Positions 937 through 23,558 of a stretch of 64,000 bases of DNA are shown piece after piece; the stretch's first letter is position 1; each line of letters starts with the position of its first letter. Under the pieces are notes generated by a model that worked only from the letters and a program-made list of their open reading frames with translations, was not told where the DNA came from and made no database searches. Location of the stretch: the NCBI GenBank assembly GCA_029838195.1, contig JALGVJ010000036.1:1-64000 (forward strand). Reading direction: 5' to 3'. Origin of the DNA: Promethearchaeota archaeon (GTDB lineage Archaea > Asgardarchaeota > Lokiarchaeia > Sigyniarchaeales > SOKP01). Both the position numbers and the translations under genes were made by a program.

Positions 937-1551
937 TTAGGTTCCTTCTATTGCCTTACCAGAAAGCCTTTTATAATGATTCAATACAGCTTGTCGAGTT
1001 GCATACACAAATGCTCGCTTCACGTTAACGCCCGTTATGGCAATCGTTTCGTAGATCAACGTGTGGTTTAACTTTGCCGTGTCCAATACCTTTCTAATTT
1101 TCGAAATTTCCACGATATCATCCAAATCTCGTTTGTTTGCCAATACAACCATGGGAACATCAGGAGGCTCCGTAATGCTCGGAGGAATTAATCTATCACC
1201 ATAAAATTTCAAGAGCTCTTTTAAAGACCAGATATTCTCTTCCCATTGATCGATGAGCGAATCCCAGACGAAAACCACGGCATCCGTGCCTTTTAACACG
1301 GTTTGCCTCTGATATTTATGGCGTCGTTGCCCGGCCACGGTATATACTTGAAATACAACATTAGAGACTCTTGCGACTACCCGGTCGAAGAATAAAGTGC
1401 GTCCAGTCGGGTCTTGTATGGATTGCATCTCACCGCTTGCTAAACCTTCTTTATGGTAAATCCATTCAAGTGCAGTGGTTTTACCGCCCAAACTGGGACC
1501 GTAGAAACATACTTTAAAAACGAGCGTTCCATCGCCTCTCCGACTTGGCAT
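937..1551 (-). CDS. MglA-like small GTPase
   Basis: G1 GPSLGGKTT, MglA signature RTLFFD, G3 TVAGQ (MglA has TVPGQ), G4 NKRD. Confidence 0.9.
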   Translation of the reverse strand: MPSRRGDGTLVFKVCFYGPSLGGKTTALEWIYHKEGLASGEMQSIQDPTGRTLFFDRVVARVSNVVFQVYTVAGQRRHKYQRQTVLKGTDAVVFVWDSLIDQWEENIWSLKELLKFYGDRLIPPSITEPPDVPMVVLANKRDLDDIVEISKIRKVLDTAKLNHTLIYETIAITGVNVKRAFVYATRQAVLNHYKRLSGKAIEGT

Positions 1552-1811
1552 CTAGCACAAACCTCCAGAGAATTTAGTTTTATCATTCATGAATGAAAAC
1601 CTTACAAATGCATGAAGTTAAGAGTTAGAAATAAAATGATTCTATAAACTTTCAAATATAATAAATTTATAAAAGTTCACTAATTTAAATATGATGGATT
1701 AGTAAACGAGGAATGTGGTCTAAATTTTTGTCCGATTTTCATATTTTCGAAAGACTTTTCATGGATTTAAAATTCCCGCATTTAGGTACGCTAATAATGG
1801 TTGAAGATTAC

Positions 1812-2726
1812 ATGACAAATAATCTAAAAAAAATAGCGGTTATTGGGATGAGACATGATTTAGGTCAAAATCGCAGGGGCGTGGATATGGGACCGAGTGC
1901 CATACGTTTTGCGAATTTGAACCCACAATTAAAGGAACTGGGTTTTGAAATTCAAGATCATGGTGATATTAATTGTTGCACGTTTGAAACGGGTATCATG
2001 GGAGATCCCAAAGCCCGCTTTCTTCATGATATCGTTAAACATTGTAGTGAATTAAGAGATCACGTGAGAGAAGTAGTTAGTGAAAATTTTTTTCCTCTAA
2101 TTTTAGGAGGAGATCATTCAATTACCATGGGGGTGATAGCAGGAGTGGTTTCGCATTTTCGAGACATTGGGTTGATTTACATGGATGCGCATGGGGATTT
2201 TAACACTCCTGAGACGAGCCCCACGGGAAATATTCATGGCATGAGCTTGGCGGCCATTACGGGAAGAGGCCATTCTTTATTAACGAATCTTGCTGGAAAA
2301 GTGCCCATGATAGAAGATAATCGCGTGGTCCTTTTAGGAGTTCGAAAATTAGATTCGGAAGAAAAACGGAATTTAAGAGAAAGTGATATTACGGTATTTA
2401 CCATTAAGGATATTGATGAGCGAGGAATTTCGGAGGTAATGAAAGAAGCTATAACAATAGTATCACGTAATTCACCGGTAAAGAAATTTCATTTTAGCTT
2501 GGACGTGGATAGTATCGAGCCTTCCGTAGCACCAGGAACGGGTACCACGGTTTCAGGGGGTCTTACTTATAGAGAAGCGCACTTAGCATGTGAATTAATT
2601 GCTGAAAGTAAAAAAATGATTTCGATGGATGTCGTGGAAGTAAATCCTATTTTAGATTTAGCCAACCAGACGGGAAAGCTTGCGGTAGAATTAATTTTGA
2701 GTTCCTTGGGAAAACGGATTCTATGA
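1812..2726 (+). CDS. rocF: Arginase
   Basis: GVDMGPSAIR, GGDHS, DAHGDFNT, GNIHGM, SLDVDSIEP, EVNP. The ORF is open from 1713, but similarity begins near ATG 1812. Confidence 0.92.
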   Translation: MTNNLKKIAVIGMRHDLGQNRRGVDMGPSAIRFANLNPQLKELGFEIQDHGDINCCTFETGIMGDPKARFLHDIVKHCSELRDHVREVVSENFFPLILGGDHSITMGVIAGVVSHFRDIGLIYMDAHGDFNTPETSPTGNIHGMSLAAITGRGHSLLTNLAGKVPMIEDNRVVLLGVRKLDSEEKRNLRESDITVFTIKDIDERGISEVMKEAITIVSRNSPVKKFHFSLDVDSIEPSVAPGTGTTVSGGLTYREAHLACELIAESKKMISMDVVEVNPILDLANQTGKLAVELILSSLGKRIL

Positions 2727-2904
2727 CTCTGGTGGTTTGAAATTGCTTGTTATAAATTTTTTGATATAAGATTATTACTAATCAAAACCATTTTACATGA
2801 TTAAAAAATACATTTTAACCATGTTTTATTCTTTTTTTTTGATCAGATTTCATTTCACGTTTTTAAAAGGATAAAAATTATTACCATAAAAAACCAAGAT
2901 TAAT

Positions 2905-3321
2905 ATGATGAAACGTAAGGAACAATACGAAAGGAAATTGGATTTCATCTTGGAAAAAATAACACATTTACCTGAAAAACCAGAAGAGAATGAATTCTAT
3001 ATTGACGCTTTGTTTTATCGTTTTCAAATTTCAATTGAAGCCGCTATGGATATCATTGCGATGTTATGTAAGGATTTGGGGATAAGAGTAAAAGATGATT
3101 ACTCTAATATAGACGAGTTAGAGAAATTAAAAATATTTGATCCTCAACATTTAAAGGAATTACGCAAATTGAATGGATTGAGAAATGTGATCGTTCATAA
3201 ATATAATAAAATAAATGAACATTTAATTCTTGAAAATACTAAACAGATTTTAAAGACATTAGACAATTTTATTAAAAACGTAAAAAAAATTATAAATGAA
3301 AAAATCAAAATCTCTGAGTGA
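2905..3321 (+). CDS. HEPN (DUF86/HepT-like) RNase toxin
   Basis: RNVIVHKY fits RX4HXY; 138 aa; overlaps the MNT gene. Confidence 0.88.
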   Translation: MMKRKEQYERKLDFILEKITHLPEKPEENEFYIDALFYRFQISIEAAMDIIAMLCKDLGIRVKDDYSNIDELEKLKIFDPQHLKELRKLNGLRNVIVHKYNKINEHLILENTKQILKTLDNFIKNVKKIINEKIKISE

Positions 3322-3730
3322 AATAGAGAAAGATCTGGCATATTTAAAAAACTTTTGGACGGTTCTTTTTGGTAGTTATGTTAGCAAGGACTGGATTCCT
3401 GGAAGATCAGATATAGACGTGGCTATAATAACAAGAATTAAAGATCGTCAAAAAAATCTTGAAATTTGGTCAAGCTTGTTAGAAAAACAACATTATCATG
3501 ACTACGATTTGAAGATTTTTGAATTGATGCCATTATATTTACAAATTGAGATTATTAAGAACTATAAAGTGTTATTTGGAGATGCTCTTGAAATATCGGA
3601 ATATTTTTATCATTATAGGAAGCTCTGGAAGGACATGGAATATCGATATGAATCAAATCAATTTAAAAATCTTGAAGAAAAACTTAAATTGATGAAAAAT
3701 CGTAAAAATTTTATTTCTAACCTCAATTGA
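3296..3730 (+). CDS. Minimal nucleotidyltransferase (MntA-like antitoxin)
   Basis: LFGSY....GRSDIDVA fits the GS..DxD motif; 144 aa. Confidence 0.88.
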   Translation: MKKSKSLSEIEKDLAYLKNFWTVLFGSYVSKDWIPGRSDIDVAIITRIKDRQKNLEIWSSLLEKQHYHDYDLKIFELMPLYLQIEIIKNYKVLFGDALEISEYFYHYRKLWKDMEYRYESNQFKNLEEKLKLMKNRKNFISNLN

Positions 3731-3749
3731 GGAAATCTAATCCCCCCCA

Positions 3750-3981
3750 AGGCTTTTGCATGTCCAATACCAAAATCCCGGGTTTGAACAACTCAAACAA
3801 TGGGTTACCTAATTCCAAGACCAGTTTTAACGGTAGAATCGATTTGTTCTACCGTAGTCAAGCCCTTAGATATCATCTCCTATATCATCACGATCATTAC
3901 TTTCTGTAATCGAATTGCCATGAAGTAACTCATGAACTCTTTTAACACGACAGGTCTCTTGCCTAATTTTTCTAAAATGAT
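3750..3981 (-). pseudogene. 3-hydroxyacyl-CoA dehydrogenase C-terminal relic
   Basis: Manual minus-strand translation gives IILEKLGKRPVVLKEFMSYFMAIRLQKVMIVMI*EMISKGLTTVEQIDSTVKTGLGIR*PIV*VVQTRDFG. This resembles the 3HCDH C-domain (GK.PV....GF.ANRLQ...G.....ID..VK.GLG.R.P..G...T.DF) with three in-frame stops. Confidence 0.75.
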
Positions 3982-5133
3982 TCAATCAGGAACGTGTATG
4001 GGATACTTGCCATATTTATTTTTCACGCCAATGTAAGCCAGATATCTATCGAGGGTGACGGCGGGATTGATGGAATGTCCGGAAGAAAATATATAACCAC
4101 CTCCAGGAGCGAGTTCCCGAATCAATCTTTTAGAGTATTCTTCAATTTCCGAGATTTCGCCAGTTGCAAGCATGACAGGGGATACATTTCCCACAAAAGT
4201 AATATTATCTCCATATTTCTGGTTTAATTTGAAAATATCGTATTCAGGGTTTGCAGTCGTCGGTTCGATTGGGTTTAAAGCATCCACACCACAGGCAATA
4301 ATATCTTCAAAAATTTCGGTGAGATCTCCATCTGAGTGCAGCAATATCTTGCAATCCTTTTTATGTGCTGCCTCACAGATTCGTTTTAACCAAGGAAATA
4401 CGTAGGTTCGATAATTTCGAGGGCTCATGAAAAGGCCATTTTTAAAACCGTAATCATCCCATAATAAAATTAGTTTTGCCTCCAATTCACCTAATATTTT
4501 TACCACTTCCAGCGCGAATTTACCTCGTTCATCGAAAATTGCTTTTGCTTGCTTTGATTTAGCAATAACACGTGAAAAGGTTTCTATTCCAAAACATTCC
4601 CATGAAACCTCCATTAAAGCTGCGGTTGAGGGCACGGCAAAAATCTCATCATTCATTTTTTTTTGGACTTCCTTACCCGCTATAAATCCGTTTACTCTTC
4701 CTTCCCATTGGGGATCTGGGTGCTCCCAACTCTCGAAATCTTCAAAATTTTTGAAGTACCCTCCCACGTATCCATAAATAATCGTTCCATCTTTTTCATA
4801 AATTTCATTACGCATCATTCTTCCAAATTCATCCACGATAATCCCGCCACCGAGCACCTTACGGGGAAAAAGGGAGCTAATGGAAAGCACGATATCCATT
4901 CCCACGCGGCGGGCAAATTCGTACGTTTTTTTATATCCCGATTTTAAAATGCGCTTGCTCCCCGATAATTTTTTCAGCATTTTTTCGGGTAATTTTGGGA
5001 TGCTAGTTAGACTACCTGGTTCAACTCCAAAATGCTTCATTATAGTATTATTTGTAAATGCACTTTCGAAGTAAGGAACTTTATCAGGCTCTTCATGATT
5101 GATGGTTTTTATAACTCTTTCTTCCGCATTCAT
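3982..5133 (-). CDS. Uroporphyrinogen decarboxylase / MtaA-CmuA methyltransferase family protein
   Basis: N-terminal ERV....HEEPDKVP, then WDDYG....FMSP, LHSDG, LNPIEP, GNVS, GGGYIFSSGHSI. Confidence 0.85.
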   Translation of the reverse strand: MNAEERVIKTINHEEPDKVPYFESAFTNNTIMKHFGVEPGSLTSIPKLPEKMLKKLSGSKRILKSGYKKTYEFARRVGMDIVLSISSLFPRKVLGGGIIVDEFGRMMRNEIYEKDGTIIYGYVGGYFKNFEDFESWEHPDPQWEGRVNGFIAGKEVQKKMNDEIFAVPSTAALMEVSWECFGIETFSRVIAKSKQAKAIFDERGKFALEVVKILGELEAKLILLWDDYGFKNGLFMSPRNYRTYVFPWLKRICEAAHKKDCKILLHSDGDLTEIFEDIIACGVDALNPIEPTTANPEYDIFKLNQKYGDNITFVGNVSPVMLATGEISEIEEYSKRLIRELAPGGGYIFSSGHSINPAVTLDRYLAYIGVKNKYGKYPIHVPD

Positions 5134-9965: not shown

Positions 9966-11126
9966 TTAATAAAAGGGAAAATGGTATTCTGAGTTTTTAG
10001 TCTCTTCAAGAGAGCGTAGTTCTAGTTCTTTATCAATAAACCCTTCAATGTTACATATAAATCGATATTCTTTTTCTAAACAAAGAGTTATTGCTATTCC
10101 TTTTTTGTTCATGCGAGAAGTTCGTCCAATTCGATGAACATAATTTTCAGGATATTGGGGGATGTCATAATTTATTACATGAGATACGTTTTTTATATCC
10201 AATCCCCTGGCAGCGACATCGGTTGCTATGAGTAAATTTATCTGCTTTTTTCGAAAAGCTTTAAGTATTTGTTCGCGTTGATATTGAGAGAGATCTCCCG
10301 AGATAAGACCGACTTTATACTTTAAGTTTCTACGATAGTTTAATTTACGAGATAACCAAGAGGCGGTTTTTTTAGTGTTTACAAAAACTAGCGCATGTCG
10401 TGGCTGTTCTTTATTTAAGATTTGTAGAAATGCGAGATATTTTTGTTCGAATCGTTCTATCATGTAGTAATATTGTTTAGTGTTTCTAACTGTTAATTCA
10501 TCTCTACTCAGATTTATGAATAAGAATGAATTTTTCGTGAATTTTTTCACCAAATTTCTCATGTCTTGATCGAGTGTTGCCGAAAAGAGCATGAGTTGAT
10601 TCTTTTTCGAAACTTCTTTAATTGATGTTAGAATATACTTGATATCCGGTGAAAAACCCATATCCCATAAACGATCTGCCTCATCTAAAACAATAAATTT
10701 AATATTTTTAAATTGTAAATGTCCTCTTTTGTATAAATCAATAATTCTTCCGGGAGTTCCAATAATAACATGTACTCCACGATGTAACCTTTCAATTTGC
10801 TTGTTAATTGAAACACCCCCATAAATAACGGCAGATCTTGCATGATGGGGTCGGATTTTTTCAAATACCTCATGAATTTGTTTTGCTAATTCCCGGGTGG
10901 GTACCAAAATGAGACATTCATTATGAACCGAATTTAGTTTTTCTAAAATGGGAAGTAAAAAAGCAAGCGTTTTACCTGAACCCGTTTTTGCTTGTACCAT
11001 TATGTTCTTGTTTTCTAAAATCATGGGTATGGTTTTTGCTTGAACGGGCGTTGGAGTCGAAATATTAAAGACGGCCTTTAATTTATTTGCTATTTGCGGT
11101 TTAATTCCAAGATTAATGAAATTCAA
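9966..11126 (-). CDS. DEAD-box RNA helicase
   Basis: Q motif PTPVQ, AKTGSGKT, PTRELA, TPGR, DEAD, SAT, ARGLD, HRIGRTSR. Confidence 0.95.
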   Translation of the reverse strand: MNFINLGIKPQIANKLKAVFNISTPTPVQAKTIPMILENKNIMVQAKTGSGKTLAFLLPILEKLNSVHNECLILVPTRELAKQIHEVFEKIRPHHARSAVIYGGVSINKQIERLHRGVHVIIGTPGRIIDLYKRGHLQFKNIKFIVLDEADRLWDMGFSPDIKYILTSIKEVSKKNQLMLFSATLDQDMRNLVKKFTKNSFLFINLSRDELTVRNTKQYYYMIERFEQKYLAFLQILNKEQPRHALVFVNTKKTASWLSRKLNYRRNLKYKVGLISGDLSQYQREQILKAFRKKQINLLIATDVAARGLDIKNVSHVINYDIPQYPENYVHRIGRTSRMNKKGIAITLCLEKEYRFICNIEGFIDKELELRSLEETKNSEYHFPFY

Positions 11127-13476: not shown

Positions 13477-16071
13477 TTAACTTAACCTATTCCAAGGTAA
13501 CCCAAATATCAAGAAATAAGGGAAAATTTTTAAGATCTCTTGAGAAGGAGCATTTTGCGCCATTTTTCTAATTAAAAGTAACTTGCGTTCAATTGCATTT
13601 ATCATATCCTCAGAAATGAATTGCTTACGAGCATTTAACATGGCAGTGCCTATATCCTGCCCATTCAATAAATTATCATAAAAGGAGAAGGTAATTTTAT
13701 CCGATATTTCATCATCAGTTGAATTAGTTCTAAAAACAATACCGGTCAGGTTGTTCAATTGCAAGGAAGAAATTATGTTACTAATAATGGGAATCGGATT
13801 TAAAATCCTTTCCTTGTGTTCATTAAAAAATTGGAGATCGAAAAAAATCAAGGGTTGCGCTGTGAGGTCATGATCCTTAGAAATAAGGCTAAAAATTTCT
13901 TTTAATTTAAGAGTTTCATTCTCACTTGTTATTAAATAGCTTTCAAGAGGAATTGATGGAAAGTAAATTAAATTTCCAATAATATGGATGATGTTAAAAT
14001 TTTTTTCCTTCAATAACTTTAAGATATTTTCATGGGTGGCACTTTCTCTTACCAGAAGTTCTTTCGAGGTCAAGGTTGTTGAGGAGGTGAAAAATTGACG
14101 TAATTTTTCCATCCTTTCGAGACCATGAGGGAAAGGATAGAGGGTTTCTTTCTTGTTCAAATCATCATTCCATTTAAATGGTCCTTTAGAATTAGTTAAT
14201 TCAACAACTAAAGCCTTTATATTTTTTTCAGACGTGCCTCCAACCGCTTTTTGAAAGGAATCATCAGTGGGAAAATTAATTCCATTTAAATTTAAGTTAG
14301 GAGAGTAATGAGTAATGGAACAATTTAACATTAAGAATTGCTTGTCATAAATCAAAGTAAAGGGAATTGATAACTCATCTGTTAAAAAAACTAATTGGGG
14401 GGTAAAATTTAATGTTGAAATTTCAAATTGAGAGAAGTATTCTCTGATAAATCTCGGTAAGGAAAGATAAAGCAAGGTTCCCGTATCCTTAAGAGTAAGA
14501 TTCTCTTTTACTACTTCTTTTGATTCAAAAAGATGACCGGAGATTGCGTTTAGCTTAGTAGGGTTCCAAAATTCATTCTCGAGTGTAATAATTTTAATTT
14601 CATTGTTTTGAGAACCCATTTTACATGTTATTGATTGCGAAGGAGACAGTTGAATTATGAGTTTTTGAAGGATAAAATTCGGATCATAAAAAGAATTTTC
14701 ACTGGGAAAGGCATCTTCAAAAACATAAATCTTGGTTTTAAATAATTCTCCTTTAGCAGATAATTTGTTTAAATCTTTGAGTAGGGGATGGATCTCAGGA
14801 TCTAAAAAAGGAATTATTTTTTGAGCAAATGAGATGTTTTTTTCTTCAAATAGGGCTCGGTAAAAGATCATGTTCCAAAATTCTCTCTCTTCCCCAGATA
14901 AAAATGCAGATTTTAAACGCCACAAGTAATTATGAGTATAGAAATAATGGTATAATTCTTCTTCAGTTTGAGGTATTTTAAGATGATAAATTAACTTTTC
15001 GAAAGATTGGAAGAGAAACTTTTTTTCTTTCATTGTGAGAAAATTTGTAGCTGCTTCTGCCCACAATTCTATTAAACTTTTATCGTAGCTTACATTTGAT
15101 TGGAATGAGTAAACTTCTTCAAGGAAATTATAGACGTCATAGACGATTTCAAATTGATTTCTTTTCATGAAGAATTTAATGAATTTATTTAAATAATTAA
15201 TTGCCTCCATAAATGTCTGATATTTATAAATTTTATTATAAAGATTTTTTAAAATGGAAGTGATCCAGAAGTTCTCACCGATATCGCTTAAATAAATAAT
15301 TAACTCTTCTAAATCGGGAAGTAGAGTAGGAAAAGTACGCTCATTAATGACGATTCTTGGTAAATTTCCAAATATGCTTTTCAATTCATGGGGAATTCGA
15401 GTTAACAAGATGGTGCTAATTTCTTTAATGAACTCAGCATCTTTTGAAAGTCCATATTTAATATCAATATTTTCCAGAAGGACGTGAAGAAATACTGCCC
15501 GCTTACTAGGTTCAATTTTTTTCATAATTTTATTTAATTCTTTCATACTCGTGGTAAACAATTCTGTAGGGACAAAAGTTTTCCTTAAGAATATTAACAA
15601 AATTTGCAATTCCAATAATTTTAAGAAATCTCCTTTTTGTCTTACAAAATAAGAAAAAGAATCAATGAACTTTGATATGGCTTCTTCCGGAATTACCTCA
15701 ATTTTTAAAATTTCTTTTAATAAATCGGTAAAATGGGAATATAAGAGATAAAAATCATCTAATTTAATTAAAAATGAAAAATAACGTTTTATAGCATCAA
15801 TATAAAGGATAGTAGCATTCGGTTCAATGGATAGATCTTTTCTATATTTGAGACTTTTAATGTATGTCAACCAAGAATTCGATATTAGCATGATCAACTT
15901 GAATTGCTTTTGAGCATCTATCTGTTCATTCTTCATAATCTCAGCATATAAATCATTTAAAACTTTATCCGCCCAATGATGATTGGCATTTTTTAAAAGA
16001 TTGCGAGCTAAAGCTATTTTATTTTGAAATTGAATTAAAAATTCTTTAAATTGTTCTGCGCGTGCGGACAT
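13477..16071 (-). CDS. Large alpha-helical protein with C-terminal CHAT (caspase/separase-like) domain, catalytic dyad absent
   Basis: About 450 aa helical region, then GTLLY..LP..IR, IPFTLIYD, ATHENIL, NIIHIIGN (CHAT IIHFAGHG), LIFFDLQ (LVFLNAC), FSFYDNLLNGQDIGTAMLNARK, LIFGLP. Confidence 0.65.
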   Translation of the reverse strand: MSARAEQFKEFLIQFQNKIALARNLLKNANHHWADKVLNDLYAEIMKNEQIDAQKQFKLIMLISNSWLTYIKSLKYRKDLSIEPNATILYIDAIKRYFSFLIKLDDFYLLYSHFTDLLKEILKIEVIPEEAISKFIDSFSYFVRQKGDFLKLLELQILLIFLRKTFVPTELFTTSMKELNKIMKKIEPSKRAVFLHVLLENIDIKYGLSKDAEFIKEISTILLTRIPHELKSIFGNLPRIVINERTFPTLLPDLEELIIYLSDIGENFWITSILKNLYNKIYKYQTFMEAINYLNKFIKFFMKRNQFEIVYDVYNFLEEVYSFQSNVSYDKSLIELWAEAATNFLTMKEKKFLFQSFEKLIYHLKIPQTEEELYHYFYTHNYLWRLKSAFLSGEEREFWNMIFYRALFEEKNISFAQKIIPFLDPEIHPLLKDLNKLSAKGELFKTKIYVFEDAFPSENSFYDPNFILQKLIIQLSPSQSITCKMGSQNNEIKIITLENEFWNPTKLNAISGHLFESKEVVKENLTLKDTGTLLYLSLPRFIREYFSQFEISTLNFTPQLVFLTDELSIPFTLIYDKQFLMLNCSITHYSPNLNLNGINFPTDDSFQKAVGGTSEKNIKALVVELTNSKGPFKWNDDLNKKETLYPFPHGLERMEKLRQFFTSSTTLTSKELLVRESATHENILKLLKEKNFNIIHIIGNLIYFPSIPLESYLITSENETLKLKEIFSLISKDHDLTAQPLIFFDLQFFNEHKERILNPIPIISNIISSLQLNNLTGIVFRTNSTDDEISDKITFSFYDNLLNGQDIGTAMLNARKQFISEDMINAIERKLLLIRKMAQNAPSQEILKIFPYFLIFGLPWNRLS

Positions 16072-16131
16072 GATGTTTACAGAAATGATTTGTTTTTTTT
16101 TTAAATGGACTTTATTGCGATTAAATTTATA

Positions 16132-17304
16132 TCATACATCTCGGGGGTGTGTTTGACCAAAATTTTCTGTTTCTATATTGGGGTTTGTTAACCATCCTTT
16201 TTTTAAGAGTTTCCTTGTATATAAGAGGGAGGCCCCCACCCAACTCATGTTTTCTCGACCTGATACAGCAAAGATTCGAATTTTTTCCCTTATTTTTTCT
16301 GGAAAAAATCGCTTGAGTTGATTTTTAAGCCGCTCTTTCAAGCCAGGAATTAAGCTTCCTCCCCCCGTAAGAATGATATGAGATACTAAATCTTCCCAAT
16401 TCTCTCTCTCCCATATTTTAATTATTTTTGCAATGGTTTCATCTAGCCCGGGATGATTCACGTGCATGATATTTGGATAAAAAATCGGTTCTGATATTAA
16501 GATTCTTTCTAAATTTAATGTCAGGCGGGTTCCATCCGGTAAATTCACGATCTGGTTGTATCTGTCTATATTTTCTTTAATTTTGGGAAATTCTACTTCA
16601 AAATTTTCCACGCATAGAGACGTTTTCTCCTTAATTTCCCTTGCTAACCATTTTGTAAAATACATGTTTTGATTCGTGCTTTTTAAGATTAAACTCAAAA
16701 AATACTCCGTGAGATCTTTTCCTGCGATGGGAAATAAATCGCGAGCGAGTTCATTAGTAAACCCGTGTACTGCGGAAGAAATGCTAGTAAATGATTCTCC
16801 AAGGTTAACGATCACTCCCGTGTTTTTCTGTACTGCAGAAAAAATGGCTTGTTCTTCTGGTAAAAACAAGAGATAAGGAAATTGGAATACATTAAAAAAT
16901 ATATCTTGTAATCTTGTTTTTTCTTGCTCCGTTATATAAAAGGGTGTTAAAATAATGAGCGGTTGCTTAAATCGAAATTCAGGAATGATATTAAGCAAGT
17001 TATAATGAAAGAGAAAATAGTTAGAAAAAAGGTCTAAATTATTTTCTTTTTTAAATTCATGTAATTTTAAGACTTGTTGATATTTTAAAGCTTCATTACC
17101 GAAAAGATATTGGTTCTCTTCCTTTTCAGAAGGGAAGTAAATATCTTCGAGTCCTTCTATCACGCTTGAGGTAAAAAGAAAATCTTTCTTATCCGCATGG
17201 ACAGTAGGAGCAATAATTTTTGGAAAATCATCCCCAGCCCAACCAAATCTAAAGGTGGCTGAACCTAAATCCAAGATTAATGGACGTAATTCTAACCGGG
17301 ACAT
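16132..17304 (-). CDS. Divergent Asgard actin-related protein
   Basis: PLILDLGSATFRFGWAGDDFP (phosphate 1), TGVIVNLGES (phosphate 2), AGKDLTEY, AREIKEK, LPDG, ILTGGGSLIPGLKERL, SWVGASLL. Confidence 0.92.
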   Translation of the reverse strand: MSRLELRPLILDLGSATFRFGWAGDDFPKIIAPTVHADKKDFLFTSSVIEGLEDIYFPSEKEENQYLFGNEALKYQQVLKLHEFKKENNLDLFSNYFLFHYNLLNIIPEFRFKQPLIILTPFYITEQEKTRLQDIFFNVFQFPYLLFLPEEQAIFSAVQKNTGVIVNLGESFTSISSAVHGFTNELARDLFPIAGKDLTEYFLSLILKSTNQNMYFTKWLAREIKEKTSLCVENFEVEFPKIKENIDRYNQIVNLPDGTRLTLNLERILISEPIFYPNIMHVNHPGLDETIAKIIKIWERENWEDLVSHIILTGGGSLIPGLKERLKNQLKRFFPEKIREKIRIFAVSGRENMSWVGASLLYTRKLLKKGWLTNPNIETENFGQTHPRDV

Positions 17305-17347
17305 GAGCTTGTATACTCTTATTTATTTTAGGATCTCAGTACTGACA

Positions 17348-18244
17348 TTACACGGCATAGAATTGGATTTCATGAATGTATTCATCTACATCTTTCTTTA
17401 ATTGATATTCCTTTACTTGCAATTCTAATAATCCCAAGACTTTTTTGAATTCCTCAGCCATATTTTCAATGTCCACGTTAGCCATTTTCTGTACTGCATC
17501 TCTCTTTATTTTAAAATACTCTAGTCCTTCTATTATCCGTTCATAAGATTGATTAATGCGATTAACTAATTCTAATGCATTTCTCTCGGTGACTTTTCTC
17601 ATTTTCCTTAGGATAGATAAAATACTTGAAATTTGAGTCTCCCATAACTCATATTTCAAGGAATAATCTTCAAATAATTGCTTAATGAATTCTGCCAATT
17701 CAGTATAAAAGTTTTCCTCTTCAATTTTTTCCGTTTTTACCGGCGGTTCAGTCAATTTTACCGGTTTTACGGGATCTCCTGCTACTATCGGTGGTTTAAC
17801 TTTTTCGGATTCTATTTCATCTTTACTTATTTCTTTTTCTTCTGCCCTGATCACTGAAGCGGTTTTCTCATCCAGGGGTGTTTCTTCTTCCTTGGTTTTT
17901 TCCATCGATATTAAAGGAACTCTTTTTCTTTCTCCGGGTTTTACTCTTTGAGGGAGGGGGACATCTTCCATGAGATATTCTTCAATAATCTTCTTTTTTT
18001 CAGCGGTTTCATTACCTTTTCCAATTTTGATCATTTCTTCAGAACTTTTAGATTCCACATGCTCCCCTGTCTTTTTCTCCTTCTCATCTTCCGTAAGTGC
18101 GCTTAATAAGTTTTGAAGCGAACTTTCCGATTTTTTAGTTGATTTTAATGCCATATCTAAGGAAGGTGTTTTTAACTTTTCCTTTCCTTTTGAATCTTTT
18201 TTTCTCTTTTTTTTTGTAAGCGGCATGTGAAATTTCCTCCTCAA
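17348..18244 (-). CDS. Hypothetical protein: long charged/Pro-rich disordered N-terminus plus helical C-terminal domain
   Basis: K/E/P-rich first ~175 aa followed by amphipathic helices. First gene of the actin run; the start may be the ATG at 18226. Confidence 0.7.
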   Translation of the reverse strand: MRRKFHMPLTKKKRKKDSKGKEKLKTPSLDMALKSTKKSESSLQNLLSALTEDEKEKKTGEHVESKSSEEMIKIGKGNETAEKKKIIEEYLMEDVPLPQRVKPGERKRVPLISMEKTKEEETPLDEKTASVIRAEEKEISKDEIESEKVKPPIVAGDPVKPVKLTEPPVKTEKIEEENFYTELAEFIKQLFEDYSLKYELWETQISSILSILRKMRKVTERNALELVNRINQSYERIIEGLEYFKIKRDAVQKMANVDIENMAEEFKKVLGLLELQVKEYQLKKDVDEYIHEIQFYAV

Positions 18245-18329
18245 GTTGAGCGTCTAGATACTTAATAAAATATTTCCTTTATAAATTTAATTTTATCAAA
18301 GGATCAAATGGTTAACATGATAATACTTA

Positions 18330-18545
18330 TCATATCTGATCAAAAAATCTATTATAAAAAATGGCCTAAAGGAGTACCTAAGGAAATTGAAATTCCTAAA
18401 AAAACTCTAATTGATTTCCTCGAAGATTCCGTTAAAACCTATCCTCAAACTTATTTCATGGGATTTGAACTCACCTACGCTCAATTATTAGACATCGTAT
18501 ATCGTACTGCTACCAAATTACATGAATTAGGATTAAAAAAATTGC
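18330..18545 (+). pseudogene. N-terminal relic of long-chain fatty acid-CoA ligase
   Basis: SDQKIYYKKWPKGVPKEIEIP..TLIDFLEDS..YFMGFELTYAQL...ATKLHELGLKK is the typical FadD N-terminus. Similarity ends before GDRV and the AMP-binding motif. Confidence 0.75.
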
Positions 18546-18650
18546 TTAAATACATTAAAACAAATGTATTTATGATAAACAAAAAATTTCTTCCCTCCAT
18601 AAATTTTTTATTCCTTCCTTACGACGATATAAAACACGTAAAAAATTTCC

Positions 18651-20567
18651 ATGTCCAAACAGCACCCTTCCGCCCGAAAAGAATTCACCATCAAGGACAA
18701 GCGGGGCAAGGAGGTCCTTACCGTCAAGCTCATCAATGGCGAGTCCCGCATCTTCATCGATGATGAGGAATTAATGGTATGCAAGTTCGTGCCCCTTGCC
18801 ATTCCCGTAAAAGAGATGCCAAAATTCAAAGACATCGAATCTATTAATGACATCATCGACCATTTAGACCATTCAATAGAATATTACGGTTCGGAAGCTT
18901 GGGAGGAATTGAGCAAGGAAGAGAGAGAGGAATTGGATTTTTTCGTGAACTGCTCGAACCTCCAAGCGTGGGTGGAGCACGATTACAATACGAGATTGCT
19001 CGATTATGCCCTATCCTTTCCGATCTTGAAAAAATTAGCCGAAAAAGGAGATGAGTACGCTCGGATGCGGTTCAAGGAAGAGCTCATCGAGTGGTTTAAA
19101 CGCGGGAGCAAGGAAGTACAAGAATTTATAGTGGACTCCTACGATCTTCTCGAAGAGCTCGGTGAAGATTTTTATAGCATGTACGAGCCGAACACGGCAG
19201 AAGTCCTTAAAGCCGTGGATAAAAATAAGCATTATTATGCCAGAGAAGATGAAGATTTTAACATTACCTACCTTAAACTTGAAATGGAAAGCCGGGACGA
19301 AATAACTCTCCTGCCTACCGTCTCAAAGCTTCCTAAATTAGAAAAATTAAAATTAAAGCTCCCGCCTCATTCGAAAAAGGACGTGGAATGCTTGAAAAAC
19401 CTCCAAATCCTCGAATCCTTGGAAATAATAAAATGCGATGCCGGACCGCTTCTCGAAATAGCCACCTCCCTGAAAAACTTGAAAAAGCTCGATATTTATA
19501 CTCATAATCAGTTCTATTTTCCGAAACATGCGGGCAGCCTGGCCAACCTCACGAAGCTCAACATTGGAGGACATTTCAAGGAATTTCCCAAAAATATAAG
19601 CACGATGAGATCACTGAAAGAACTTAGACTTGGAGGGTCTAAATATGAAGCCATCTCCGAAGAAGTCGGCCGGCTAACCAACCTCGAAGAATTAATTATC
19701 GAATATTTCAATCCGAAAGAAGGGACCACGGGAATCCCCGACTCCATCGCCAACCTCACCAATGTTAAAAAGATTTACATCATGAGATGCCGCTCCCTTA
19801 CACGCCTTCCCGAAGCCTTCGGCAACCTTCCATCACTAGAATACCTCTACATAAAAGATTGTCCGTCGCTCGAGGGACTTCCCGAGTCCTTCGGCAAGCT
19901 CCCATCGCTAAAAAAACTTGAGATAAAAAAATGCCCCTTGCTAAAGCGCCTTCCCGAATCGTTCGGCTACCTGCCGTCCCTGGAGGAGCTCCTCATCGAG
20001 GACACACCTATTGAAGATTTTCCCGCCAGCTCGGAAAAGTTAACCTCGCTCAAGAAAATTGAGATCCGCAAGCACCCGCTCGAGTACCTGCCCGCCCGTA
20101 TCGGCGAGCTGAAAGCCATTGAAACTATCCGAGTAGAAGAGAGTCCAAAAATAAAAGACGTGCCTACCAGTTGGACACGCCTCACCTCACTCAATAGCCT
20201 CGGAATGACCAAATGCGGGCTTACGGAATTTCCTAAAAAGGCGTGCGACATTCAAAGTTTGGAAGTTCTTGACTTGGATTACAATGAACTCGAGAGCATT
20301 CCCGATGACATTCTCAAGCTCAAGAACCTAGAAATTCTAAGAATGCTTTCTAACAAGCTCAAGGAATTGAACCCGCACTTGGCTGACTTGCCCTCCATCA
20401 TAAAGATGTATTTAAGCGACAACCGTATTAAAAAAGTACCGAAAGAATTCTTGAAACTACTACAAACCCCATTCAAGACGCTGGATCTGTTGGGAAATCC
20501 CGTGGAATACATTCCTTATGAATTAAAAAAATCTAAAATCATGGAGCTTAGTGGATACTATTATTAG
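18651..20567 (+). CDS. Leucine-rich repeat protein with Loki-type N-terminal domain
   Basis: N-domain CSNLQAWVEHDYNTRLL..FPILKKL...GD..A...FKEE, followed by many LRRs including 24-aa LPESFG.LPSL..L.I..C units. Visibly more GC/C-rich than neighbouring genes. Confidence 0.9.
   Translation: MSKQHPSARKEFTIKDKRGKEVLTVKLINGESRIFIDDEELMVCKFVPLAIPVKEMPKFKDIESINDIIDHLDHSIEYYGSEAWEELSKEEREELDFFVNCSNLQAWVEHDYNTRLLDYALSFPILKKLAEKGDEYARMRFKEELIEWFKRGSKEVQEFIVDSYDLLEELGEDFYSMYEPNTAEVLKAVDKNKHYYAREDEDFNITYLKLEMESRDEITLLPTVSKLPKLEKLKLKLPPHSKKDVECLKNLQILESLEIIKCDAGPLLEIATSLKNLKKLDIYTHNQFYFPKHAGSLANLTKLNIGGHFKEFPKNISTMRSLKELRLGGSKYEAISEEVGRLTNLEELIIEYFNPKEGTTGIPDSIANLTNVKKIYIMRCRSLTRLPEAFGNLPSLEYLYIKDCPSLEGLPESFGKLPSLKKLEIKKCPLLKRLPESFGYLPSLEELLIEDTPIEDFPASSEKLTSLKKIEIRKHPLEYLPARIGELKAIETIRVEESPKIKDVPTSWTRLTSLNSLGMTKCGLTEFPKKACDIQSLEVLDLDYNELESIPDDILKLKNLEILRMLSNKLKELNPHLADLPSIIKMYLSDNRIKKVPKEFLKLLQTPFKTLDLLGNPVEYIPYELKKSKIMELSGYYY
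19800..20010 (+). repeat. Three ~72-bp tandem coding repeats (LRR units)
   Basis: cttcccga..c.ttcggc.a.ct.cc.tc.ct recurs with a 72-bp period. Confidence 0.75.
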
Positions 20568-20591
20568 ATAAACTAATTAATCTCGGCAATT

Positions 20592-21533
20592 CTACTCTTT
20601 CGTTAAATCTATAAAAGTGGCCATGGACTCGATGTCATCCACTGTCACTTGTTTATTATTTTCATATTTTTTACCATAATATTTGAGCAAGATTTCCGGA
20701 AACACGTTATTTTGGAAATGAAGCCACGCTTGCCCTTTATGATCATCGTCCATAATTCCCGAACACACGTGATAGTTTCCGGCCTCATCCTCGAACGAGC
20801 AGAGCGCAAAATTCCAAATGTCGGTAAAATCATACAATCCCGGCTTGACCCATCTTGCTTTTGCTATAACTTCTTCTCCAAAAAAAGTTATTTTAGTCTC
20901 TAAAATGCCGCCCAACACGTTCCACGCCTCCTCATAACCCTTTCTAAGCTGCCGCTGAATGAACTCGTTTCTAAGATCGTCTGAAAGGTCTGTCGGTTCA
21001 ATATCCTCAGCCAATTTGTGCTCTATCAAGAAGGTCTTGAAATCATCGGCATGTGCCTCATAAAAACCATTAGAATACATTTTATATAACTCATCATTTT
21101 CCATTAAATCCTTCGAATGAAATCGATTTTTTTTAGTATAGCTGCTACAGAGAATATAGCTGTTAGGAAGCAAACCCTTATTACTATAGGCAAAATAAAC
21201 TTCATAAGATTTTCCTTTCTCAGGTTCAATTAATACTTTTGCAACGGCATCGGGATGCGCTTTCACGTACAACGCAATCGTATTAGCAACTTTTTGTAGC
21301 TCGTCCATGTTCGTTATCTTTCCATCTCCATCCCGCTCTATGCGGAATGTAAATTCATTTCTTTTAATGCCTAAATAATCGCTCAAAGTAGAGTCCCTTT
21401 TAAATCCACCTCCATTTTCTGGAGAAAATTGAACCGAAATAGTTTTAGAATCAGGCAACACTTCGAGCAAATTTGTTAATCCATCAATTTCCTTATACAA
21501 TTTTTTTTCTAAAGATTTGATAAGACGTTCCAT
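20592..21533 (-). CDS. Hypothetical protein (possibly a 3' fragment of a larger gene)
   Basis: 313-aa ORF with no recognised family; its 5' end abuts the PCNA-like relic. Confidence 0.6.
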   Translation of the reverse strand: MERLIKSLEKKLYKEIDGLTNLLEVLPDSKTISVQFSPENGGGFKRDSTLSDYLGIKRNEFTFRIERDGDGKITNMDELQKVANTIALYVKAHPDAVAKVLIEPEKGKSYEVYFAYSNKGLLPNSYILCSSYTKKNRFHSKDLMENDELYKMYSNGFYEAHADDFKTFLIEHKLAEDIEPTDLSDDLRNEFIQRQLRKGYEEAWNVLGGILETKITFFGEEVIAKARWVKPGLYDFTDIWNFALCSFEDEAGNYHVCSGIMDDDHKGQAWLHFQNNVFPEILLKYYGKKYENNKQVTVDDIESMATFIDLTKE

Positions 21534-22146
21534 GTCTTATCAATCAACTACAGAAATCATTTTTGGAGAGGATGCTGTATTCATTACAATCAAATCACGG
21601 AAGTATGGGACGATCATTGAAAGAAAAGTGGAGAATCTAAATTTAAACCTTCCCGAGATTTCTCATGACACTATTTCAAGGCTACAACATGGTGCTTGCT
21701 TCACGGTTTAAAAAATGAGGTTACAATACATTTTTAAGAATCTTCTTTTAGATGATCTTGTAAAAATTATAGTTTTACAAAAACGGGTCATTTGGGAAGA
21801 GTTTAACGAAGATTCCAAAAATGAAATCATTTTAAGGGGAAAAAATGTTGTTATCAAGATCGATGAGGATCAGTTGGACGAGGAGGAAAATAAGGAATCT
21901 TGTTGTCAGAACACGTTTAGCAAGCAGTACTTACTGCTATTTAATAAAATGCTTCCTCCTTTAGAAAAACAAGATGAAATAATTTTCCATATTAAGAAAA
22001 ACATTCCATTAAAGGCTATCATAGAATTTAAGAAATTAGGCAATTGTCAGCTGACATTTTTCATTGCTCCTAAGGGAGAAGAAGACACTGATTTTGAGGA
22101 AGAGAAGGAAGAAAACGAGGAAGAGGAGGAAGATGGATACGGGTAA
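21532..22146 (+). pseudogene. Divergent PCNA (sliding clamp)-like relic
   Basis: ORFs 21517-21711 and 21715-22146 share a frame and are split by one TAA. The C-terminus FSKQYLLLFNKM....DEIIFHIKKNIPLKAIIEF..LG..QLTFFIAPK plus acidic tail matches the PCNA C-terminal pattern. The N-terminal third is missing. Confidence 0.72.
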
Positions 22147-22195
22147 GATTAAGTGTAATCCATTTTCTCTTTTTTCTTATTAATCTAAATATAAA

Positions 22196-22249
22196 TTTTT
22201 TTTGATTATTTCTTTTCTGGAAACTTTTTTTTGATTATTTATTTTCTGG
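22196..22249. repeat. Imperfect ~29-bp tandem duplication in T-rich intergenic region
   Basis: tttttttgattatttcttttctgg followed by tttttttgattatttattttctgg. Confidence 0.6.
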
Positions 22250-22269
22250 TACTCTCTTCCCTAACTATT

Positions 22270-22296
22270 AAAAAAAAAAATTTTAAAAAAATAAAA
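22270..22296 (-). terminator. Oligo-T terminator after rRNA 3' trailer
   Basis: Minus strand TTTTATTTTTTTAAAATTTTTTTTTTT directly follows the G-rich trailer. Confidence 0.45.
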
Positions 22297-22404
22297 TGCC
22301 ACCACGCTCAGCTGAACTCCTCCCCCCTAAACCCCTCACACCCCCATCCTCTTACACCTCTCACCCTCAAATTCTAAGCCCGAACCTATAAGCCCATTTC
22401 AACA

Positions 22405-22619
22405 CCAAACACTCGTGCTATTGAGAGCGGCAGGCTGAATTGGTCGCCCGAAAGCTCCCGACGTACACCCCCGCCTCACCTACCCCGTCTTTTACGGGTG
22501 CACTCGTCTCGTTTCAACGGTGTGCGTCACCACACCCCGCCTAGGTTCCTCCCACGAAACCTAACGAAACGAGAATAGGCGACTATTTTCGTCTCGTACT
22601 GACTCACGACGGTCTAAAC
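22405..22619 (-). rRNA. 23S rRNA 3'-terminal fragment (domain VI end with enlarged ES39), internally deleted
   Basis: Minus strand reads GTTTAGACCGTCGTGAG (PTC region), AGTACGAGA (sarcin-ricin loop), CGAAAATAG, a branched H98/ES39, then ACGAG.GC.CCCGTA.AAGACGGGGT.G.TG.GGCGGGGGTGTA..TTCAGCCTGCCGCTC.CAAT, matching the archaeal 23S 3' end. It is a GC-rich island in AT-rich DNA. Confidence 0.85.
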
Positions 22620-23016
22620 TCTCCATTTCAATTTCTAAAGCGCCCCCTTTTTCAAATAACGCTTTTTTTAATTCTTCCAAATTAACTCCTTGCTTGTATT
22701 CAAAAATAACCGTCAAGATCGCTGTTTTATTCTTCTCTACAATAACTGCATCACAATACATCATAGATAAGCCTTTATTGCCAAAAACCGTGGCAATTTT
22801 TCCTAACGCACCGGGCGTGTCTTCCATGGTTATCCTACATCGTATGGGCTTAGAGTCCTCTGAAAATCCTATTGGAAAAATTTTTATTTCCCTTGACTCT
22901 GAATCAGCAATCATCATCAATTGAGCATTTTCCATTATCCCTAAACTTTTTCTAACAATATTAGGAATCACTATCCGTCCCCGCTTGTCGATGGTAATGA
23001 TTCTGGCATCCCTCAT
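22561..23016 (-). CDS. AbrB/SpoVT-type DNA-binding domain plus ACT domain regulator
   Basis: IDKRGRIVIP..VRKSLGI (AbrB) and MEDTPGALGKIATVF (ACT). The last ~17 codons run into the rRNA-derived sequence. Confidence 0.85.
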   Translation of the reverse strand: MRDARIITIDKRGRIVIPNIVRKSLGIMENAQLMMIADSESREIKIFPIGFSEDSKPIRCRITMEDTPGALGKIATVFGNKGLSMMYCDAVIVEKNKTAILTVIFEYKQGVNLEELKKALFEKGGALEIEMESLDRRESVRDENSRLFSFR

Positions 23017-23156
23017 TTTCGCTTTTTAAAAATTCGTGATTTTAGTAATTATTTAACTTTTCTAAACTCGGTACAAGTATGGGTAGGTCACGTTCTCATT
23101 TAAAGTTTAATTGTTCCCATTGAAAAATAATAAAATTAAAATCACGTGAAAAATAG

Positions 23157-23558
23157 TTAGGATGCTTCCTCGAGATCAGGATATCTTTTTCCGATTTCCT
23201 TTGCATAAAATCTAAACACAGAAACCACTTTCGCCAAATCTTTTAACTGACGACAAGCTCCCATTACAAAAAACCTACCTGCTGAAGAAAGAATAACGAA
23301 AGCATCTTTTCCGCGAAGTACTACTTCCAAAAGGTTATTATATCCCAAATTCTTAACTGCTTCATGGCTATTTTTTATAACAATTGCATTTAAACTCGAA
23401 AATACATCGGGATCTACGTTATAATCGGGAATGCAAGAAAAAGCTAACCGCACGCCCTCTTTTGTTATGAGTGCCAATGCCTCTAATTCCGTGTGCTCAG
23501 TAATGCTTCCTAAAAATCTTGCCAAGCTTTCTGCTTCTTTAGGTGTTAATTCGACCAT
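23157..23558 (-). CDS. Roadblock/LC7 (MglB-like) domain protein
   Basis: ALALITKEGVRLA..DPDVFSSL.A......LG...L.EVVLRG; 133 aa. Confidence 0.8.
   Translation of the reverse strand: MVELTPKEAESLARFLGSITEHTELEALALITKEGVRLAFSCIPDYNVDPDVFSSLNAIVIKNSHEAVKNLGYNNLLEVVLRGKDAFVILSSAGRFFVMGACRQLKDLAKVVSVFRFYAKEIGKRYPDLEEAS

Follow-up and report, generated by a model that had tools for sequence, protein, structure and literature searches.

An orphan, stitched 23S rRNA 3' end fused to an AbrB/ACT-like gene in a Lokiarchaeial genome

The DNA considered here, referred to as the window, is a stretch of 64,000 nucleotides from a metagenome-assembled genome (MAG) of the Promethearchaeota (Asgardarchaeota, Lokiarchaeia, Sigyniarchaeales; assembly GCA_029838195.1), namely, positions 1 to 64,000 of the 65.8-kb contig C41 (JALGVJ010000036.1). 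The genome as a whole (G000) amounts to 4.5 Mb in 94 contigs, with a completeness of 96.6% and an estimated contamination of 7.9%. On the minus strand of the window, a gene for a 151-aa protein with SpoVT/AbrB-like and ACT-like parts (22561-23016) runs directly into DNA that resembles the 3' end of a 23S rRNA gene (22619-22268), and beyond this lies a patchwork of lineage-specific genes and gene fragments. The Pfam matches of the protein fall below the curated cut-offs (ACT, E of 5.5e-4; MazE/AbrB-type, E of 3.2e-3). The sole Rfam match in the whole 64-kb window is the rRNA fragment: the model LSU_rRNA_archaea is hit at 22415-22507 on the minus strand with 56.9 bits (gathering score, 50; model positions 2883-2973 of 2987; cmscan). 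A low-threshold Rfam scan of 21800-23400 added nothing beyond chance-level matches.

The genome's own 23S gene sits on another contig. It is complete (C69:26381-29704; 2607.9 bits over model positions 1-2987), and it and the single fragment on C41, the orphan tail, make up the 23S content found in the genome. In the reference coordinates used below, designated L001, this resident 23S spans positions 1501-4824. Its domain VI aligns in full to the Rfam consensus structure, and relative to the Rfam model it carries a 153-nt insertion at H98, which corresponds to expansion segment ES39. The resident gene is framed by a very long C-rich leader and a G-rich trailer (L001 1330-1500 with 4825-4990) that are predicted to pair over ~170 nt, with a duplex energy of -121 kcal/mol and a co-fold energy of -146 kcal/mol when the flanking mature ends are included. 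Judged by this folding, the duplex would be the pre-23S processing stem.

How is the orphan built? A BLAST comparison with the resident 23S, whose Rfam consensus structure served to locate each piece, resolves 22619-22268 into a collinear patchwork of the 23S 3' region, all of it on the minus strand. Piece 1 (22603-22619) is identical to L001 4333-4349 at 17 of 17 positions and comprises the 5' strand of the H93-region hairpin, its loop, and one further base. Piece 2 (22592-22602; 11 of 11 to L001 4403-4413) corresponds to the 11 nt with which the sarcin-ricin loop begins, TCAGTACGAGA. Piece 3 (22561-22591; 27 of 31 to L001 4522-4552) holds the 3' strand of the helix that closes H94-H97 and the start of H98/ES39. 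A remnant of ES39 follows (22545-22560), in which 16 nt replace the 127 nt of L001 4553-4679, the closing helices being kept in the predicted fold. Read on the minus strand, the AbrB/ACT-like frame runs into GTTTAGACCGTCGTGAG, TCAGTACGAGA, and CGAAAATAG in succession. The pieces abut without any spacer, and the 23S sequence missing between them amounts to 53, 108, and ~112 nt.

From here on, the homology is uninterrupted from H99 to the terminator. The intact-looking tail (22402-22544) contains the distal hairpin of ES39, H99-H101, and the 3' strand of H1, and it extends to the equivalent of the mature 3' end at ~22401. It is followed by a G-rich 3' trailer (22297-22401), which corresponds to the 3' half of the pre-23S processing stem and matches L001 4825-4890, 4900-4938, and 4972-4990, and then by an oligo-T tract (22268-22296) homologous to the terminator behind the resident 23S. 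In the alignment, 22544-22334 corresponds to L001 4680-4890, with 87% identity over 213 nt and 90% over the first 182 nt; past 22334, collinear matches continue at L001 4900-4938 and 4972-5029, the T-tract included, and the orphan trailer is ~40 nt shorter than the resident one. The earlier note, made from the letters of the sequence, had described an orphan 23S 3' end composed of three non-adjacent conserved pieces with an apparently intact 3' end, a G-rich trailer, and a T-tract, and the model match and collinear BLAST pieces bear all of this out. It had placed the element at 22296-22619; the element is indeed there, but the homology reaches slightly further, to ~22268, and bases 22619-22612 probably belong to the native gene as well.

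The upstream snippets are structurally incomplete. In the consensus structure, piece 1 is without the 3' strand of the H93-region hairpin, piece 2 is without both stem strands and the remaining loop of the sarcin-ricin loop, and piece 3 is without its pairing strand, the 5' strand of the H94-H97 closing helix having fallen in the first gap. On this model, none of the three could form a native helix. A functional mini-domain made of the three snippets was also considered and rejected, the partner strands being absent. The stretch from the distal hairpin of ES39 through H99-H101 is complete and folds as expected, H99-H101 being the only whole helices. The joins between pieces 1 and 2 (J1; GTGAG/TCAGT, the slash marking the join) and between pieces 2 and 3 (J2; ACGAGA/CGAAAA) are blunt, with no microhomology at either. 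No logic relating the end points of the missing stretches to RNA structure was seen. Could such short pieces be matches by accident? The 17-mer alone gives a BLAST E value of 2e-4 against a 6.3-kb subject, and a chance match is excluded because an exact 17-mer and an exact 11-mer are collinear with, and adjoin, a 213-nt match.

The ES39 of the window (22508-22573) is shortened, having lost ~112 nt relative to the resident 23S and to 16 relatives. Between the H97 loop and H99, true 23S genes have 193 to 278 nt in other species of the same family (14 genes), 208 nt in the resident 23S itself, and 144 to 145 nt in the sister family. The orphan has ~96 nt there. With at least 144 nt in every true 23S surveyed, the short ES39 is a deletion rather than a natural variant, and a donor with a naturally short ES39 is unlikely for the same reason. 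Pattern scans of genome and metagenome contigs returned no exact match to the short-ES39 junction.

What happened to the protein gene at the join? A search of 25 relatives recovered orthologs from every one, each aligning over residues 1 to ~132-140 of the G000 protein and no further. Eleven of them terminate in PL(D/E) or a similar sequence directly before the stop, while the G000 protein reads ESLD and then continues with RRESVRDENSRLFSFR before its own stop. At the DNA level, the orthologs end in CCA TTA GAT TAA (G011 and G007), CCA TTA GAG TAA (G002), or AGT TTT GAA TAG (G015), and the G000 gene reads AGT TTA GAC followed by CGT CGT GAG, where the 23S reads GGGTTTAGACCGTCGTGAG. The codons AGT TTA GAC (S-L-D) are therefore probably the native end of the gene. 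The join itself (J0; 22612-22619) would lie within an 8-nt overlap, GTTTAGAC, that is common to the probable native end of the gene and to the 23S (L001 4333-4340). Since 22619-22612 are probably also the last native codons, unambiguously rRNA-derived DNA starts at 22611. Residues 1-136 are native, and the frame extends for 16 more codons into rRNA-derived DNA, up to a TAG at 22563-22561. The in-frame fusion noticed earlier is real, with its 16 extra codons, yet it arose as a by-product when the join took away the native stop codon.

None of the 11 relatives for which the orthologous locus was fetched carries rRNA-like DNA there. In the congener G001, which is among the 11, AT-rich DNA follows the stop codon of the ortholog. 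Synteny with G001 extends over window positions 14816-17709, breaks off, and sets in again at 22622, three bases away from the rRNA-like DNA. The orphan therefore stands at the edge of a lineage-specific island of ~4.4 kb that has no counterpart in the G001 synteny, and the part of this island downstream of the tail (18250-22267) is a patchwork. First comes the 5' part of an acyl-CoA-synthetase-like gene, cut short (18308-18560); 222 nt of it are 94% identical to C70:21543-21764 of the same genome, where a 504-aa ORF begins, and it would seem to have been copied within the genome not long ago. Next come a gene for a leucine-rich repeat (LRR) protein (18651-20567) that is 78% identical to one on C59 and a minus-strand gene for a 313-aa ORFan (20592-21533). 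The latter was not found in any of 153 other genomes of the order and has a single homologue (P0002; 61% identity), from a MAG labelled Promethearchaeota archaeon, among 5.8 billion proteins. Finally, a plus-strand ORF of 143 aa with an acidic tail (21715-22146) matches only the C-terminal parts of open frames of 269 to 423 aa in relatives and is also 61% identical to another fragment, a 90-aa open frame at G000:C1:156727-156957. It is probably a gene fragment too. The island is in short a mosaic of fragments copied from elsewhere, which makes the orphan one of several copied fragments at a rearrangement-prone spot. The island ORFs and those around them showed no recombinase domain, and neither the window nor the genome yielded a second copy of the tail. 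Lacking both recombinase and second repeat, the site does not have the marks of an att-site duplication left by an integrase-borne element.

The orphan differs from the resident 23S by ~13%. Has it decayed, then? The true 23S tails of 16 other species were used to class the alignment columns as invariant (71 columns) or variable (128 columns). Not one of the 71 invariant columns is changed in the orphan, and all 31 of its differences from the resident tail sit in the 128 variable columns. If 15 to 22 changes were placed at random, 5 to 8 would be expected in invariant columns (P of ~1e-3 to 6e-5 by our calculation). When the true tails of other species alone are made into a profile, the orphan scores 176.8 bits against it and the resident tail 171.2. 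In a three-way count, 16 changes are unique to the orphan, 9 to the resident tail, and 19 to the functional tail of G001. One covarying pair is C-G in the orphan versus U-A in the resident gene, both states being present in the family. With the invariant positions unchanged, the look of a drifted pseudogene is absent despite the 13% divergence.

Where might such a tail come from? A tree of 19 tails places the orphan inside the genus clade with G000 and G001 (support, 96/94), weakly as the sister of the resident 23S (91/67). By sequence, the tail part resembles the working 23S tail of a third, closely related lineage. The possibilities left are a recent copy (from foreign DNA or a lost paralog), selection in place, or a bin made of two organisms. 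That a mixed bin lies behind the 13% difference was discounted, since no near-duplicates of C41 or C69 are present in it. Neither the 134 other genomes of the family nor pattern scans of genome and metagenome contigs yielded a donor 23S with an orphan-like tail, and two motif scans of viral contigs for a virus-borne tail returned nothing.

With the orphan as the query, tail matches were found in 79 of the 134 other genomes of the family, and 25 of those 79 have at least two copies. In many relatives, co-oriented copies stand in series, a few kilobases apart, on the contig that carries the end of the true 23S. There are five such copies on G114:C84 (L052), four on G113:C160 (L053), and three each on G106:C98 (L054), G077:C145, and G069:C101. 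The closed genomes G086 and G085 have tail copies far from the 23S. In G024 (L023, C1:193000-205438), a direct repeat of ~195 nt at 4359-4552 and 10792-10990 consists of the 23S end and trailer (a 141-nt part at 95% identity and a 56-nt part at 84%) and flanks 6.2 kb directly behind the 23S. This segment holds a LAGLIDADG-like ORF of 191 aa, an RNase H-like ORF of 147 aa, and unknowns; no integrase was seen in it by eye. The spacers of G114 and G113 carry accessory genes, encoding metallo-beta-lactamase fold, CBM96, and TPR proteins, a Ras-like GTPase, NosD, a carboxylesterase, and an adenylyltransferase, with no recombinase domain detected by Pfam. No description of this tail-copy pattern was found in the literature searched.

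How well does the orphan fit this pattern? Its segment 22544-22268 matches L001 4680-5029 and so is of the kind that defines the repeat (the last ~50 to 190 nt of the 23S plus the 3' trailer), and the copies of G024, G114, G113, and G106 share its extent. It also borders lineage-specific accessory genes. It is, however, a single orphan on a contig other than that of the 23S, and it does not belong to a co-oriented series. The orphan would therefore be tied to the family-wide cassette phenomenon by resemblance only. Its stitched 5' part appears to be special to the G000 locus among the orphans compared: the others begin at or after H99, and no further domain-VI snippets were found in those of G002, G020, G021, G024, and G113, two pattern matches in G113 having proved spurious. 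The orphan tail of G002 (L026, G002:C95, 6260-6410) is cut ~12 nt before the mature 3' end. It is closer to the tail of G011, a member of a different genus, than to the 23S of G002 itself, which suggests a transfer between genera. Behind the 23S genes of G000 and G001, no tail remnants were found, and there is no array. A variable block lies in that position, 4.3 kb long in G000 (C69:29705-34000, L057 206-4500) and 2.4 kb long in G001 (C23, L027 3400-5750). Synteny resumes past these blocks, and there is no tail copy at their far border.

The anatomy of the orphan, the complete 23S gene elsewhere, the absence of rRNA-like DNA from the locus in relatives, and the intact look of the tail are direct observations, and the orphan cannot serve the ribosome. 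What process would produce such a structure? We consider it somewhat more probable than all other readings taken together that the orphan is a non-ribosomal copy of the tail of a functional, non-resident 23S, placed ectopically by non-homologous joining. The source would be a lost paralog or else the 23S of a close relative that arrived as part of foreign DNA. A first join to the 3' end of the AbrB/ACT-like gene would have taken place within the 8-nt microhomology GTTTAGAC. Templated stretches of 9 to 17, 11, and 31 nt may then have been laid down, each skipping forward on the same template, before a continuous copy of more than 270 nt took in the tail, trailer, and terminator. All of this could be the work of one template-switching event during repair or replication, with synthesis of low processivity. 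A single event of this kind fits better than slow pseudogene decay because several very short templated stretches precede one long stretch, and it avoids four independent deletions beside a tail that bears no damaging substitution. At J1 and J2, which have no microhomology, template switching is not specifically supported. Serial deletion is a less probable alternative. The weak sister placement to the resident 23S (91/67) would also suit an old in-genome duplicate and, like the failure to find a donor 23S in the genomes and contigs searched, counts against a non-resident source.

The earlier note had offered three origins: an rRNA gene copy collapsed by deletions, a separately transcribed fragment of a split 23S, and a misassembly at an rRNA repeat. 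The first comes closest, in that the orphan is a partial copy with three internal gaps, although ectopic copying and pasting is the better reading. In its full form, it holds that a second, diverged rRNA operon once stood downstream of the AbrB/ACT-like gene and was worn down by successive deletions, the tail surviving as a terminator. Between the operons of one genome, a difference of 13% is unusual. Decay through four deletions with zero substitutions at invariant positions is an odd pattern, and no rRNA-like DNA is present at the orthologous locus in any of the 11 relatives, the congener among them. On the other side, the pieces are collinear, the trailer and terminator are included in the homology, as expected of a DNA-level copy, and the substitution pattern of the tail is that of a functional 23S. 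Some relatives do have two operons, and G032 has two equal matches; "Ca. Harpocratesius repetitus" has two rRNA sets (PMC8813620). On balance, we regard a wrecked operon as unlikely. It is rather less likely again that the tail is a long-resident spare kept by selection, either as a joint of recombination-based gene capture or through pairing of its trailer in trans with the pre-23S leader. Such a role would account for 71 unchanged invariant columns at a divergence of between-species level, the trailer has stayed complementary to the single-copy leader (z of ~-4.8), and tail-bounded cassettes are widespread in the family. Against this, the copy is single and shares no contig with the 23S, so that exchange with the true tail would rearrange the chromosome; the congener G001 lacks it; and common descent alone explains the complementarity to the leader.

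What about RNA as the template? A reverse transcriptase could have copied a transcript from the terminator upward, jumping three times on a structured template, with capture of the cDNA at a break at the gene end. The homology does stop in the terminator T-tract, which would be the 3' end of a primary transcript, and the blunt, collinear joins could be template jumps. The end of homology in the T-tract is not sharp, the DNA beyond being AT-rich; the junctions do not lie at helix bases; neither a reverse transcriptase nor a target duplication was seen near the site; and with a 13% difference from the resident rRNA, the template would need to have been a foreign RNA. Such an origin seems very improbable. 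We hold out equally little prospect for a chimera of assembly or library at an rRNA repeat, the misassembly of the earlier note. A MAG of 94 contigs with 7.9% estimated contamination invites the suspicion, and no other assembly with the stitched junctions was found. A chimera with the bin's own 23S would be expected to show 100% identity, yet the identity is 87 to 90%; the copy is interior to C41, with both flanks syntenic with G001; the 11-nt piece between two joins would have to sit within single reads or k-mers, so short a piece being beyond what the joining of k-mers of usual length can produce; and neither C41 nor C69 has a near-duplicate in the bin. The split-23S proposal fails outright on the complete 23S on C69 and on the three short pieces, which are without their pairing strands.

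If the orphan is an ectopic tail copy as we favor, what does it do now? From its position, its role would be confined to the upstream gene, which it supplies with a stop codon, a C-terminal extension of 16 residues, a 3' untranslated region (UTR), and a terminator. The 3' UTR is structured (fold z of -2.5), and the oligo-T tract is likely the transcription stop of the AbrB/ACT-like gene, which presumably follows archaeal oligo-T termination in general. The orphan trailer pairs in silico with the single-copy 23S leader at -104.3 kcal/mol, versus -76.3 +/- 5.9 kcal/mol for 200 shuffles, and the resident trailer does so at -121.0 kcal/mol, versus -96.9 +/- 6.5 kcal/mol for shuffles. This complementarity is no evidence for a trans-acting role because common descent suffices to produce it. 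A broader proposal, which we rate as unlikely, is that the 23S tail is the working joint of an integrase-free system of gene capture and exchange in Loki-type Asgard archaea and that a donor tail and its cargo can, by microhomology, land ectopically. If so, accessory DNA would be introduced at sites away from the rRNA gene by ectopic tails that, like this one, keep their sequence intact, and new arrays might arise there too.

Taken alone, the locus is a relic. It cautions annotators that, where a short LSU match is joined to a protein-coding gene, neither a split rRNA nor a misassembly has to be the cause, and it is an example of a protein tail encoded by rRNA-derived DNA. It also adds a data point to a pattern in which the end of a single 23S and its processing trailer are repeatedly copied at the borders of accessory genes within one family. 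The substitution pattern of the orphan, that of a working 23S apparently from another lineage, points to DNA exchange among related Asgard archaea with the rRNA tail as a shared handle.

Several known systems invite comparison. Partial 3' ends of tRNA and tmRNA genes beside integrated islands and proviruses are att duplications, which may also build up by tandem accretion at a single target gene. The orphan is likewise a displaced 3' end of a stable RNA that borders accessory DNA, and the copies in relatives form co-oriented arrays. The target here differs, being a 23S tail with its trailer and terminator, with no integrase in the spacers examined, and the orphan is ectopic and single and has extra internal gaps. 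Serial template switching, as in fork stalling and template switching (FoSTeS) or microhomology-mediated break-induced replication (MMBIR), yields complex rearrangements. The orphan shares with their products the short, collinear templated stretches before a long processive copy and the microhomology at the first join; it departs from them in that two joins are blunt, and serial deletions give the same end product. We know of no demonstration of the FoSTeS/MMBIR mechanism in Asgard archaea.

Nearest to the present pattern in the literature searched is HeimM2 of "Ca. Heimdallarchaeum," described in one study as an 8-kb element, with an LRR protein and a homologue of homing endonucleases, situated between the 16S rRNA and tRNA genes (PMC8813620). 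As portrayed there, it too is a mobile or accessory block by an Asgard rRNA gene, with LRR cargo like that of the G000 island and a LAGLIDADG-type endonuclease like that of G024. Unlike the orphan, which is far from any rRNA gene, HeimM2 adjoins the 16S, and the portion of the study devoted to it reports no duplication of an rRNA tail (PMC8813620). Further counterparts are the 23S-tail cassette arrays of the Asgard relatives themselves. The orphan differs in belonging to no array, in its position away from any 23S, in its fusion to a conserved host gene, and in three additional domain-VI snippets, not shared by the other copies examined. Yet like the copies of these arrays, it has no recombinase in view and consists of the last 23S helices and their trailer in an intact-looking form.
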